NCBI GenBank assembly: GCA_017536505.1
Contig: JAFXHG010000012.1
Span: 52,541-116,540 of the forward strand
Length of the DNA stretch: 64,000 nucleotides
Direction: 5' to 3'
Source of the DNA: Bacilli bacterium
Lineage (GTDB): Bacteria; Bacillota_I; Bacilli_A; RF39; UBA660
Positions within the stretch are counted from its first letter, which is position 1, and each line of letters begins with the position of its first letter. Below are positions 15,001 through 21,000 of the stretch, one piece after another. Made by a program: the position numbers.

Positions 15001-18000
15001 AATATTTAATATTTATACTATAACAAATTAAAAGAACGAATTATTTTTCGTTCTTTATTTTATTATATTTATTTACTTCTATAAGTAAGAATAACATACT
15101 TAAGAAACATACACAACTAAGTACTAGTACAATAGATAAATATCTATCTTTTTCTTTTGTTAATTTATCTAACATAGAAATATTATATCTTTGAATAGTA
15201 TGTTCTTCTGAATCATACATATAAAAATCTTTATTACCAGTATTTAAATTAATACCATAAACAATATAATATATATTATTATCATCAAATTTATATGCTT
15301 CTACTTCTTTTTCATTTATCTTTATTGTAGTTTTTTCTAATCCAGATGGAATTTTATCAGTATCCAATAAAAATATTTTATTACTATTAAAATTTAATTC
15401 TTTATATAAAGTATATTTACCACTATCTAAATCATATAAATATAAACCTATATTTCCAGTTGTATCTTTTAAACCAACTATTGTATAATCTGTAATTTCA
15501 TTATAAAAAGCTGGTATTTCTTCATTATTTATAACAACTGTAGTTTCTTCAAAATTATCTGGTGCTGTTAATGCATTTTTTCTTTTCACTACTGTATAAG
15601 TTTTATTATCAATTTTTACATTTATAGGATTAATTTCCTTTACATTAGCATTTATTGTATAAGTTCTAGTATTTCCATTTTGAGCAGTTACTACTAATTG
15701 TATAGAATTAGAACCTTCAATAACAGATATTTCTCCATCACCTATTACACTTGCAGTACTATCTTCTGCACTAGCACTTACTTGAATCTTTTCAACTGTA
15801 CTATCTAAATCAACTGAGTATTCTAAGGTTTCTTTATCAAACGTAGGAGATAATTCATATCCATCAATAGCTAAACTTTTTAAATAATTATTTTTAGAAT
15901 ATGAAGCTTCTATTTCAGCTTGAGTTCTAATTCTTATTGATTTTGATCCTTTAGTTACACTCATTAAAGATTCATCAAATCCATATACTTCTGCGCTATT
16001 TATATAAACATTTGCAGTACCACTACCTAAAGCTTTAAATGTAAAAGTATAAGATTTAGAAGTTTGACCACTTCCTGTAACATATCCAACAGATCTTTGA
16101 CCACTTTCTGCTGTAGATGAAGTTAATCTCAAAAGAGAAGTATCATATCCTATGGAAAAATCCCAAGATCCTAAACTAGAAGCTGAGGAAAGTGTTACTG
16201 TTATTTTAATAGTATTTCCAACTACTACACTATTATTTCCTTTAACACTTATAGTAGCACTTGCTGCTTTTATATTTGCATTAAAAAGAAGTGCTGATAA
16301 AAATATTGTAATTAATAAACTTAAAACTTTTATATATTTTTTCATATTACCTCCTATTGTTCAATTGAACCTACTTCTAATATATATTTTTGAATTTTTA
16401 ATAAATCTAATGGATTTATTTTTCCATCCTTAGATGTATCTGCAGCCTTTTTATAAGCACCATTGAGTTCTGTTACATCTAATATATGTTTTTGTACTCT
16501 AAGTAAATCTAATGGATTTATTTTTCCATCTCCACTTGTATCTCCATATATTACAACAGTATAACTCTTTGTTTCACCAGCACTAGTTATACTAACTTTA
16601 TCACCAGTTGCTAATGATTTATTTTTTTTAATTGTTCCATTAGAGTCTTTAATTTCTACTTTAGCATTAGCATTTAAAGATTTTATTTTTTCTACTAAAG
16701 TACTAGAGTTAGTATCAATTTCAAATCCACTAAAATATGTACCATCAGATTTAACACCACTTTCACTAACAAGTTCATCAACTAATGGTTCTCCTGAAGT
16801 ATTTTCACTTCTCACTATATTCAAAGTATACGTTTTTTTACTACCATTTTGTGCAGTTACTTTAATTTTAAATTTATTATCACCAACATTTAATTTCTTT
16901 TCTCCTGTATTACTAACAGTAGCATTTGAATTAACTGTAGTAGCAACGATATTTACTTTTGTTTGATCATTGGCCACATGAACAGTATAACTTGTTTTAG
17001 AGCCATCGAAACCTTCAACTATTTTATTATCAACTTTTAGAGAATTTAAATAATTATTAGGATTTCCTTTATTAGGTAAAGTTACAACTTTTTCTGGCAT
17101 GTTTTCATATACAGGTATAGAAAATATAAAATCAGAACCTAAAACGTCTAATTCATTATAAGATCTATATACACTATTTGCCTCGTCTGCTGCAGCTTTT
17201 ATATTAGTTTGATATTGATGAGAATAAATATCCCAATATGTAGAAACCACATTAAATTTTTTTAAATATATACTGTATTGACCTTTATTTATGAATTTAT
17301 CTCCAATAAATTTAGCTCCACCAATAATTGCTTTCGACATATTATCCCATGGCCTATCAAAATCTGTCTCTGTACCATCTGCTCCACCCATTGCATATAC
17401 AACGCTATTTTGAGCAGGAGACTTATCAGTTCCAGCACCTATATTATAAACATTATAAAATCCACCATCTATCCATTTACCTTGTAAAGATGAATATTTA
17501 GTATTATAAATACTATAAGTAAACCCTTCTCCTTTAGTAGCTACACTTCCACCACCAACTTCTTGATATGCAAGAGCTGCTAAATATACACTACTAACAC
17601 CACTTTCTTTGGCTGCAGTTATAAAATCTTCAGAATATTTCTCTAAATAATTATCTTCAAGAACTGTTTTAACACCATCTAATGTCTGAATATCAGGATT
17701 AGTTTCAAGAGATTCAAATTGAAAAATATACATGTCATTCAAGAAATTTCTTGGATCCATATAATAAGCAACAGTACCTTTACTTGCTGCATACCAACTA
17801 CTACCTTCTAATACAGTAAAAGTATCAGTATAATAATCGTATGAACCTCCTAAAGTAGATCTATATCCCTCATCTCCTTGTATTAAGCTAGTACCTACAC
17901 TGCTTTCGGCTGATATAACATCATTCCAATCTAAATTTGTTTGTATGGCATTAAAAGTCCAATTAGGATGAGCAGTTTTAGTAACAGCTAATGCTTCCCA

Positions 18001-21000
18001 ATAACTTTCAGGAAATCCTGCGTTCTTAAATTCAGTTTTCATTTGATCAGTTAAGGCACTATTTGGATTAATTAAATTAGCATTACAATAGTATCCATAA
18101 AAAGTTTCTCCTACTTTTGGAAAATAGTAACTAACATAAACATAATAATCACTACATATATCTTTATTTTGTGTTTTAACCGTATCTTTAGATTCTATTA
18201 CAGTAACTTTATCCCCAGTATCTAACCATATTACTCTACTTACATAATTTTCTAAACTTGAATTGCTATATAAACACTTTCCAGCTGATGAACCAGTATA
18301 TTTTTCACAACTAGCGCCCACTGGATTTAATACAGTTGCTTCATAGTCAGCTTTCACATTATTAATAAACAAAAATGATGATATAAGGAAAACAATTATA
18401 AATAAATATTTATAAATTCTTTTCATTCTATCACCTCTACCTTCACATTATATTATATCAAAAAAGAGTGAACTTGTACACCCCACTCTTATGTATTTCC
18501 AAAACTTTACAATTCAAAAATTTTTATTTTTTTACTACCATATTTTTTATCTTTAACTAGTTTCAAATTATTATTGTTTATAACCTCTGTTTCATATTCA
18601 CAAATAATTATTCCATCAGCATTTAATAAATTATATTCCACTATTTTTTCAAGACATTCATTAATTAGATTTAATTTATATGGTGGATCTAAAAATATAA
18701 TATCAAATTTATTATTACTATTTTTAAATAGTTCTAAAGCAGTTTTATAATCACTTTTCATGATATGAATTTTATCATCCATATTGCTTGTATTTTTTTT
18801 AATTATATTTATTAATTCTATATTATTATCAATAAAATATGCTTCACTTGCTCCATTACTTAATGCTTCTATTCCTAGAGATCCACTACCAGCAAATAAA
18901 TCTAGTACTATACTATTTTTTATTTTATTTTGTATTATTCCAAATAAAGATTCTTTTACTCTATCCATAGTAGGCCTTGTACCATCTATATCAAATCCTA
19001 TTAAATTTTTTCCTTTATATTTACCACTTATAACTCTCATTATATCACCAATATAATTTTATCATAAATATTTAAGAATTTAAAGAAGAAATAATAGCAC
19101 TTACCATTTCAAAAGTAGATAAAGCTTTATTAAGTTTATCACTAGGCCTTAATTTATAATTCGTTTTTAATTCCTCTACAAATAAATCAAATAATTCAGG
19201 ATTTCTATTTAAAGTTTTATACCAATGTGAATTTTCATGTAAATATTTAATATATAATGGATTACTTTTAATTTTAAATTGAGTTTCTAAAGTCATTAAT
19301 CCTCAAAATGTTTATATAGTGGTCTTGGCTTATATGCTTCTTTAGTTGGAGTGGTATTATCTTTTTTAGAAAAATCTTGTACAACACCTAAAACCCTTTG
19401 TACATTACCAATACCTTCTTGTAACCCATCTAAATCAACATTTTTAAACCAATTTACGACTTCGCTTAAAGTTAACCCAGCTATACCAGCCTTACTTGCT
19501 TTATTTATAGTTTTATCATTCTTATCATCAGTATTTTTATTAATATAATCTTGCCATACACTTTCTTCTTCCCCATATAAATCATACATTTCATAAAACT
19601 TTTGCCATGTCATTTCATTATTTTTTACATATTTAATAAGTTTAGGATTATTTTTTACAAATTCTTTAAATTCATCTTTTTTCACATAATCACCTATTAA
19701 ATTTTATGATTATATATTTTTTTTAAAACAAAAAAGTAGAATTTTATTATCCTATACAATATGGATATTCTACTCCTTTGATAATTATTTTATTTATTGT
19801 ATTTAATTCATCTACATCTCCTTTTTTCTTAATTAGTAGATAATTTCCTGTATGTCCAATTACATAACCTTCTTTATATATCTCAGGTAAAAATTCTACT
19901 TCTTTATTTATGAATTTATTAAAATATTCTTTCTCTAATTTCTCACTAATCTTAATTAATTTTTTAACTCTTTCTTTTTTAGTAATATCGTCTATGTGAT
20001 TAGGTAATTCCTCTGCTTTAGTACCTTTTCTAAGAGAAAAAGGAAATACATGTATTTTGGAAAATCTTATTTTATTTACTGTATCTATTGTTTCGTTAAA
20101 TAATTCTTCAGTTTCTCCAGGAAATCCTACTATAAGATCTGTAGTTATTGAAATATTAGGTCTAATTTTTCTTATTTCATTAATTTTATTAATAAAATAC
20201 TTTTTATCATATTTTCTATTCATTAATTTTAATATTTCATCACTACCAGATTGAATTGGAATATGCATATGATCTACTAGGATTTTACTATTTTTCAATA
20301 CATTCATAAATTCATCGTCTAATTCAGTTATTTCTATACTAGATATTCTAAGTCTTTCTAAACCTTCTATTTTTTCTAATTCTTTTAATAATTTAGAAAA
20401 ACTAAACTCTTCTAAATCTGCTCCATAATGACCAGTATGAATACCTGTTAATACTATTTCTTTATGTCCATCACTAATTAACTTTTTGATTTCTTCTATT
20501 ACAATTTCTGGTTTCTTACTTCTAACTTTACCTCTAGCAAACGGAATAATACAATAACTGCAATAATTTTCACAACCATCTTCTATTTTTACAAAAGCTC
20601 TTGTTTTATTAAAATTATTTAAACACATGTCTTCAAAATCTTTTTCCATAATATTTTCTATATCTATTATTGGTTTATTAGTTCTTTTATATTTTTCTAT
20701 ATATTCTACTATTTTACTTTTACCGCTATTACCAAGTATTATAGATACATTTAAATCTTTTAATAAATTAGAATTAACTTGAGTCATACAACCTACAACT
20801 ACCACTATAGCTTTAGAATAATTTTTAATTACTCTCCTTACTACTTTTAATGATTTATTATCACTTGTATTAGTAACAGTACAGGTATTAATAATATATA
20901 TATCAGAATTATTTTCACTACCTTCTATATATCCACTATTTATTAATTTATCTTTCATTACATTACTTTCATAAGTATTAACTTTACAACCTAATGTATA

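Follow-up and report, generated by a model that had tools for sequence, protein, structure and literature searches.

Two adjacent minus-strand genes in a 64 kb stretch of DNA from an uncultured gut Bacilli (assembly GCA_017536505.1, contig JAFXHG010000012.1; the whole stretch is called the window below) encode a predicted secreted N-acetylglucosaminidase with a C-terminal dockerin and a predicted membrane protein with a divergent cohesin domain. The enzyme, gpA (16354-18426, 690 residues), is followed directly downstream by the membrane protein, gpB (15041-16345, 434 residues), and the two genes form a tight operon with 8 nt between the gpA stop and the gpB ATG (16345). An open reading frame (ORF) check placed both genes exactly where an earlier interpretation of the DNA alone (the sequence-only reading) had put them, on the same strand. 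We infer with a probability of about 0.7 that gpA and gpB bind each other, that gpA cuts peptidoglycan and that it does so in the producer's own wall, the pair thus being a 1:1 cohesin-dockerin tether for a housekeeping autolysin. Both proteins are present verbatim in public data under a single name, 'MAG: cadherin-like beta sandwich domain-containing protein [Bacilli bacterium]' (MAG, metagenome-assembled genome).

Domain composition of gpA and gpB

The sequence-only reading had recognized a type I dockerin with two calcium-binding repeats at the C-terminus of gpA, and profile and structure comparisons agree with it. The Dockerin_1 profile (PF00404) matched residues 627-683 with 53.4 bits against a cut-off of 22.9, and the match covered profile positions 1-57 of 57. 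Each calcium loop is EF-hand-like and is followed by LLxxQKxIL, modeled as helices at residues 638-648 and 672-682 in an AlphaFold2 structure of gpA that was built from an alignment of 40 orthologues (predicted local distance difference test, pLDDT, 88.0). Orthologues keep loop positions 1, 5 and 12. The modeled dockerin superimposed on the Clostridium thermocellum Xyn10B type I dockerin (2ccl_B) with a template modeling (TM) score of 0.93, a root-mean-square deviation of 0.9 Å and 39% identity; Foldseek gave TM scores of 0.81-0.87 with 4fl4 and 2vn6, and dockerins in the PDB were also matched by gpA in a phmmer search. By sequence and model the C-terminal module is a canonical type-I-like dockerin, predicted to bind a cohesin. 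A six-frame translation of the window contained no dockerin calcium-loop motif besides the two in gpA. The last residue, Gln690 (16357-16359, minus strand; ending IEQ, IKQ or ISQ), is invariant in the 40 orthologues, which is unusual for a C-terminus straight after a dockerin.

The glucosaminidase domain proposed for gpA was also recovered, in a divergent form. In the phmmer search of the PDB, the best match was the Staphylococcus aureus Atl glucosaminidase structure 6fxo (5.3e-13), followed by 6fxp (1e-9), 6u0o (3.4e-9) and 5wqw (5.7e-8); SagB, Clostridium perfringens Acp and AtlE were matched as well, with 4pi7 among the entries. The Pfam profile PF01832 gave no match to gpA at E ≤ 1, and the NCBIfam SagB model scored 71 bits, far under its cut-off of 425. 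Foldseek placed the gpA model closest to SagB in the SagB-SpdC complex (6u0o_B, 2.3e-11) and then to Atl, Acp, AtlE and LytB, each of them a glucosaminidase of peptidoglycan, with the GH73 matches spanning E values of 2e-11 to 1e-7 and TM scores of 0.63-0.72. The catalytic Glu289 and Tyr405 are invariant in the 40 orthologues. Within the ETG motif Glu289 falls on SagB Glu155, and it also aligns with the LETG and HETG motifs of Atl and Acp; the gpA sequence HQYQTN aligns with HQYATD, the (H)QY(A/Q)T motif of GH73. Sequence and fold together indicate that residues ~205-445 are a divergent GH73 glucosaminidase, for which hydrolysis of GlcNAc-beta-1,4-MurNAc bonds in peptidoglycan is predicted.

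The remaining regions of gpA fit an exported multidomain protein. The N-terminus reads as a signal peptide, with a basic start, a hydrophobic helix (residues 3-19 in the AlphaFold2 model) and an AxA-like site, and gpA has no further hydrophobic segment. The beta domain that follows (residues 27-120, 18067-18348, minus strand) contains four cysteines, C40, C51, C91 and C114, that are invariant in the orthologue alignment and could form disulfides or a metal site; they belong to an extracellular protein of an anaerobe-associated lineage. No Pfam family matched residues 27-204 or the small module at residues 545-624 at E ≤ 10, and no recognizable wall-binding module or repeat was detected anywhere in gpA by Pfam, including the scan at E ≤ 10. 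The Cadherin-like domains of gpA and gpB cross-match each other.

The cohesin-like domain that the sequence-only reading saw in gpB is supported by its orthologues, by a family profile and by fold, and it lacks a Pfam match of its own. The Cohesin profile (PF00963) did not match window gpB even at E ≤ 1, the outcome that the earlier reading had named as refuting it, and this result also counts against the tether. The same profile matched 20 of 30 gpB orthologues (44-83% identical) with a best E value of 1.1e-8; PF00963 is on record for P0008, which is 83% identical to gpB, and likewise for many database orthologues. A search of the PDB with the gpB family profile (A1) found the Acetivibrio cellulolyticus ScaB cohesin (3l8q, 7.4e-5) and more than 10 further solved cohesins at E values of 0.003-0.4, and no other beta-sandwich family, BatD or CARDB structure was retrieved. 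The AlphaFold2 model of gpB has a pLDDT of 88.8 overall and ~90 over residues 28-142, which match solved cohesins, nine-stranded beta-sandwiches, in fold. Its best Foldseek matches were the C. perfringens GH84C and GH33 cohesins (2w1n, 7e-9; range to 4e-6), with TM scores of 0.68 for 2jh2 and 2vo8, the top target TM score over the whole domain. Other top cohesins were 2xdh, 5k39 and 1qzn, a set that includes Archaeoglobus fulgidus non-cellulosomal and type II cohesins. A test by Pfam alone is too strict here because orthologues, family profile and fold all give cohesin, and we conclude from these matches that residues 28-142 are a short (~114 residues), divergent cohesin, assigned to no type and predicted to bind a dockerin.

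A different identity for this domain is a generic Ig-like or BatD/CARDB-like sandwich, which would leave gpB as a surface or adhesion protein with no tie to gpA beyond a chance sharing of the Cadherin-like domain. It draws on the missing Cohesin match together with weak matches of window gpB to BatD (0.023) and Inhibitor_I42 (0.028), on BatD matches in 13 of the 30 orthologues, on a C3 MG domain and CARDB in the Foldseek list and on the shortness of the domain compared with classical cohesins. We regard it as very unlikely: cohesins are both the top-ranked and the most numerous fold matches, with similarity extending across the domain, Cohesin is the second commonest Pfam family among the orthologues, the solved structures found by profile A1 are cohesins, and the domain co-evolves with the dockerin as described below.

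The other features that had been assigned to gpB, a signal peptide, a Cadherin-like domain and a C-terminal membrane segment, were all found again. The signal-peptide-like N-terminus is a helix at residues 2-21 in the model followed by a low-confidence stretch at residues 22-27, and the Cadherin-like domain is present in 30 of 30 orthologues. The membrane-proximal beta domain (residues 236-388) gave sub-threshold Pfam noise only and no sequence match in the PDB. At the C-terminus the model has one continuous helix from residue 389 to 433; a hydrophobic segment occupies the position of the transmembrane helix in all 30 aligned orthologues, and its sequence varies. From sequence and model gpB is predicted to be a single-pass type I membrane protein with a C-terminal anchor.

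Conservation and co-evolution of the pair

Relatives of gpB were found in at least 526 genomes when one genome per GTDB species was scanned. Conservation was measured in 86 loci, made up of the best 80 of these genomes and six loci reached through three distant orthologues. Guts of animals and humans are the source of the best 80, every one a MAG and none a cultured organism, and their labels include Bacilli, Tenericutes, Mycoplasmatota and Clostridium sp. CAG:524. In every locus (86 of 86; gpB identity 41-83%) a gpA orthologue lies directly upstream of gpB and is read from the same strand. The median distance between the gpA stop and the gpB start is 8 nt, and gpA is split in one locus. The flanking genes differ: murG-murB-ftsQ-ftsA-ftsZ in L005, mutS ... 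greA-tig in L003, and LytR-CpsA-Psr, TagO-like and wall-polymer genes in L001. The selected unit is therefore the gpA-gpB pair itself. In L054 (2621-9787), from one roe deer reticulum rumen MAG, the whole pair is present in two tandem copies. The second L054 pair is much more divergent (gpB 195 versus 345 bits) and may be a duplicate that has a specificity of its own.

The guanine-plus-cytosine (GC) content of the loci is 23-39% with a median of 27%. Five loci, L020, L025, L027, L041 and L060 (25-30% GC), come from MAGs labeled Muribaculaceae, Methanobacteriaceae, Roseburia or Ruminococcus. The probable source of these labels is faulty binning or labeling, not wide taxonomic spread, because all loci are low in GC. 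The gpA and gpB families each have more than 1,500 database relatives. A profile A1 search of 1.84 billion representatives returned larger counts (21,655, 12,166 and 3,704), and these were rejected as measures of family size because the search was swamped by giant proteins with 10-50 Cadherin-like repeats.

Co-evolution was measured by a mirror-tree comparison in which gpA and gpB were cut into eight domains and the pairwise-distance matrices from 59 unique operons were compared. The dockerin is matched best by the cohesin of the partner protein (r = 0.66), compared with r = 0.40-0.46 for the dockerin and its own flanking domains and 0.45-0.53 for the cohesin and its own neighbors. With the six other domains controlled, the partial correlation between cohesin and dockerin is 0.45, a value that no other pair in the eight-domain matrix reaches; the next largest (0.43) joins two packed gpA domains. 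When 70% of the taxa were drawn 500 times, the cohesin-dockerin partial correlation ranged from 0.26 to 0.56, and cohesin-dockerin was the top cross-protein pair in 86% of the draws. These data show that the dockerin and the cohesin co-evolve across the 59 unique pairs.

The two dockerin segments evolve in concert, with an identity of 0.68 within a protein versus 0.54-0.58 between proteins. The variable recognition positions 10 and 11 agree between the segments in 81% and 75% of the proteins, respectively, and positions 17 and 18 (Q-K) are almost fixed; in the L005 type the segments read DLTDILYLQRHYL and DLTDLLQFQRQYL. Concerted repeats of this kind are typical of dual-binding-mode type I dockerins selected for cohesin binding. 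The dockerin is kept in all 86 loci. Its second calcium loop is degenerate in five of them (L012, L011, L020, L046 and L083; the L012 loop reads ANVSRKSSVEVSS), which suggests from sequence that some lineages have lost dual binding.

The two modules could still be non-cognate partners, with the gpA dockerin binding some other cohesin or else a ligand of a different kind (a wall polymer, for example), gpB recruiting other dockerins, and the adjacency of the genes reflecting mere co-regulation of two envelope proteins. Ruminococcus albus strain 8 has dockerins without a cohesin (PMC4081043), and the window covers 64 kb of the genome. Column covariation between cohesin and dockerin, calculated as mutual information with average product correction on 59 sequences, a number that gives no power, did not rise above control domain pairs such as cohesin versus the X module or the GH73 domain; the top cohesin-dockerin scores reached z = 5.2, with eight pairs above z = 4. 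We consider non-cognate pairing quite unlikely in view of the synteny in all 86 loci, with translationally coupled spacing despite differing neighbors, a dockerin whose evolution tracks the cohesin above any domain of its own polypeptide, the duplication of the pair as a unit in L054 and the lack of any other dockerin within the window.

Proposed role and comparison with known systems

In the mechanism we propose, gpA would be exported via the Sec pathway and act as an endo-beta-N-acetylglucosaminidase of family GH73. Its internally symmetric, calcium-binding dockerin would plug into the one cohesin, carried by gpB at its distal tip; the gpB ectodomain would run from cohesin through the Cadherin-like and beta domains to the transmembrane helix, with a short basic tail inside the cell. 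gpB would thus project its cohesin on a three-domain stalk and, because the dockerin would dock on a membrane-anchored protein, gpA would be held at a defined height above its own membrane. The tethered enzyme would cut the producer's glycan strands in wall remodeling, strand release or daughter-cell separation. A role in the producer's own wall is favored because the close characterized homologues are all endogenous autolysins and because several loci have envelope or division genes as neighbors.

The complex might instead form with the enzyme facing outward, where it would either attack the peptidoglycan of neighboring bacteria, helping a gut organism of reduced genome to compete or to scavenge nutrients, or process environmental muropeptides. 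Spacer domains in two stacks, of which gpB supplies three and gpA two, with the N-terminal Cys-rich domain in addition, would place the enzyme at their far end. The lineage is known from uncultured gut MAGs of very low GC, and some of them are labeled Tenericutes or Mycoplasmatota. The GH73 fold also serves attack from outside, since one of the matches of gpA is a phage PHROG named 'tail associated cell-wall hydrolase' (2.6e-10). An outward role nevertheless appears unlikely. SagB, Atl, AtlE, Acp and LytB, the closest characterized homologues, all act on their producers; the pair adjoins the mur-fts cluster or wall-polymer genes in some loci; a universally conserved, single-copy, core-like operon is a better fit to housekeeping; and no immunity gene is evident. 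A phage endolysin or prophage origin was considered separately and rejected: the weak PHROG match arises only through the GH73 fold, and the neighbors of the pair are housekeeping genes (rsmD, ylbD, MiaB-like, wall glycosyltransferases).

Several points weigh against the autolysin tether besides the missing Pfam Cohesin match of gpB and the flat covariation. Binding of gpA to gpB is a prediction, and the mirror-tree signal could in part reflect similar rates in two small surface modules rather than contact. The own-wall role follows by analogy from the roles of homologues and from envelope neighborhoods in some loci only. The examined 64 kb window may leave other cohesins or dockerins elsewhere in the genome, and one of the three unassigned regions of gpA and gpB could bind the wall directly.

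The closest precedent is in Ruminococcus bicirculans, a non-cellulolytic gut Firmicute in which, according to a remark in Ze et al. (2015, PMC4611034) citing Wegmann et al. (2014), a single cohesin and a single dockerin are associated with GH73. What that remark describes is a genomic observation, whereas gpA-gpB comes from very low-GC Bacilli and is a conserved operon with co-evolving modules. R. albus strains have one dockerin-bearing GH73 enzyme each (Dassa et al. 2014, PMC4081043). A review of Gram-positive surface display names cohesin-dockerin for cellulosomes only (PMC5817068). A literature search on dockerins with GH73, autolysins or RF39 found no paper on the gpA-gpB operon, its anchor or its distribution. 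A non-cellulosomal cohesin-dockerin pair, even with GH73 cargo, has therefore been noted before, and gpA-gpB is an uncharacterized and unusually well conserved case.

The pair works like an anchoring scaffoldin with a dockerin enzyme, without the defining features of a cellulosome or amylosome. As with C. thermocellum SdbA and OlpB, Ruminococcus flavefaciens ScaE and Ruminococcus bromii Sca, a cell-bound cohesin would capture a dockerin-tagged secreted glycoside hydrolase through a type-I-like dockerin with two symmetric calcium-binding segments. In contrast to those systems, gpB has one cohesin for one cargo instead of a multi-enzyme assembly, the cargo is predicted to cut peptidoglycan instead of starch or polysaccharide from plants, the genes of the two partners lie in one coupled operon, and the anchor is a C-terminal transmembrane helix where theirs are SLH repeats or a sortase signal (PMC5817068).

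The sequence-only reading had likened the pair to systems of pathogenic clostridia, and this parallel is loose. The cohesins of C. perfringens GH84 (NagH/J) and GH33 (NanJ) enzymes (2w1n, 2jh2, 2vo8) are the closest solved folds to the gpB domain and are also non-cellulosomal; their sequence identity to it is 11-16%. There, both modules sit on secreted enzymes that degrade host glycans and form soluble complexes, with no membrane anchor for an autolysin and no peptidoglycan hydrolase.

A functional likeness exists to S. aureus SagB-SpdC (6u0o), in which a membrane protein dedicated to the task keeps a GH73 glucosaminidase at the membrane and which provides the best structural and NCBIfam match of the gpA catalytic domain. 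SagB has its own N-terminal transmembrane anchor, whereas gpA has a predicted cleavable signal peptide (AxA site) and the proposed contact is an extracellular cohesin-dockerin one; SpdC is polytopic and CAAX-like, whereas gpB is predicted to cross the membrane once, with an ectodomain that is all beta, and Pfam gives it no CAAX/Abi match. The pair is not a member of the SagB-SpdC system because gpA lacks a transmembrane anchor and gpB is unrelated to SpdC.

Other Gram-positives use LysM, SH3b, GW, choline-binding and SLH repeats. A 'tether and ruler' composed of transmembrane helix, three-domain stalk, cohesin and dockerin might replace such repeats here and set the cutting height above the membrane, as an extracellular analogue of strand release by SagB-SpdC. 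That the operon is the main means of positioning the principal glucosaminidase throughout an order-level lineage of very low-GC gut Bacilli is a tentative extension, which we hold to be possible at best.

Genomic setting and significance

The features of the operon are collected in Table 1. The order upstream of gpA is rsmD, the hairpin and promoter-like site, an RBS (ribosome-binding site) and the gpA ATG. The promoter-like site is a consensus match only, and such sites are no commoner here than in shuffled sequence. The terminator scan found four sites, versus 0.9 expected from shuffles.

Table 1. Positions of the predicted features of gpA, gpB and their flanks in the window
Feature	Residues	Position	Strand	Basis or remark
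Hairpin and T-run after rsmD		18465-18484	-	Upstream of gpA; overlaps the promoter-like site; from sequence
Extended -10 promoter-like site TGTACA-17-TATAAT		18452-18480 (element 18452..18484)	-	Upstream of gpA; consensus scan
gpA predicted signal peptide	1-26	18349..18426	-	MKRIYKYLFIIVFLISSFLFINNVKA/DYEA; ...NNVKA/DYEA
gpA N-terminal region	27-204	17815..18348	-	Beta domain, then a helical extension packed before the catalytic domain
gpA predicted GH73 N-acetylglucosaminidase domain	~205-445	17092..17814	-	phmmer against PDB, Foldseek, alignment
gpA Cadherin-like beta-sandwich	460-539	16810..17049	-	PF12733, 46.7 bits
gpA small alpha/beta module	545-624	16555..16794	-	AlphaFold2 secondary structure; directly before the dockerin
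gpA predicted dockerin	627-690	16357..16548	-	Two 22-residue segments; calcium-binding loops at 629-640 and 663-674
Dockerin calcium loop 1	629-640	16507-16542	-	DTSGDGKINPLD
Dockerin calcium loop 2	663-674	16405-16440	-	DTSKDGKINPLD
gpB RBS AGGAGG		16350..16355	-	Overlaps the gpA TAG stop (16354-16356); read from sequence
gpB predicted signal peptide	1-27	16265..16345	-	...NANIKA/ASAT; signal-peptide-like by sequence
gpB predicted divergent cohesin	28-142	15920..16264	-	Orthologue PF00963 matches, family profile, Foldseek
gpB Cadherin-like beta-sandwich	156-233	15647..15880	-	PF12733, 37.7 bits
gpB membrane-proximal all-beta domain	236-388	15182..15640	-	AlphaFold2 strands, pLDDT 82-93
gpB predicted transmembrane helix and basic cytoplasmic tail	402-424; 425-434	15044..15142	-	Hydrophobic YLSIVLVLSCVCFLSMLFLLIEV, then NKYNKIKNEK
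Bidirectional terminator-like hairpin, 10 bp stem		15031..15056	.	At the gpB stop; common to gpB and the convergent ORF 14429-15031

The GC content of the window is ~24% throughout. On one side the pair is flanked by rsmD, ylbD and a MiaB-like methylthiotransferase gene, and on the other by a TagO/WecA-like GT4 gene (13249-14301) and a run of GT1, GT2 and Wzy_C genes. The wall-glycopolymer cluster adjoining the operon (the GT4 gene, GT1 and two GT2) ends with a gene at 7765-10233 (minus strand) for an 822-residue fusion of an O-antigen-ligase-like Wzy_C domain and a GT1 glycosyltransferase. The convergent ORF 14429-15031 (plus strand) encodes 200 residues with a charged, coiled N-terminal half and two to three C-terminal transmembrane segments; its match to MapZ is weak (E 0.0014, far under the cut-off), and it is not kept beside the pair in L001, L003 or L005.

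Farther away, the window of this 24% GC gut Bacilli MAG contains a full-length OLE (Ornate Large Extremophilic) RNA at 3640-4247 (minus strand; RF01071, 395 bits, E 1.4e-112). A gene at 21071-22249 (minus strand) encodes a 392-residue pilin-like protein with a leucine-rich repeat head, in which a prepilin-type N-terminal methylation motif, MKNKGYTLVELLAVIVVL (PF07963), is joined to leucine-rich repeats of the BspA type (LRR_5, 97.6 bits). The structured RNAs at 43809-44038, 49564-49747 and 60130-60309 (minus strand) are two T-box leaders and one 6S RNA, and the tRNAs are tRNA-Asn (two copies), tRNA-Glu and tRNA-Met.

The analysis offers a functional annotation for two large families now called 'cadherin-like beta sandwich domain-containing protein'. 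Should the tether prove real, the modules of gpA and gpB would be a minimal natural 1:1 co-evolving cohesin-dockerin pair with many orthologous variants for studies of specificity, and they could be used as an orthogonal pair for surface display. Protein-based, membrane-referenced localization of an autolysin would join the known carbohydrate-binding strategies, and cohesin-dockerin pairing would serve core wall housekeeping in hundreds of uncultured gut species, beyond polysaccharide-degrading assemblies.

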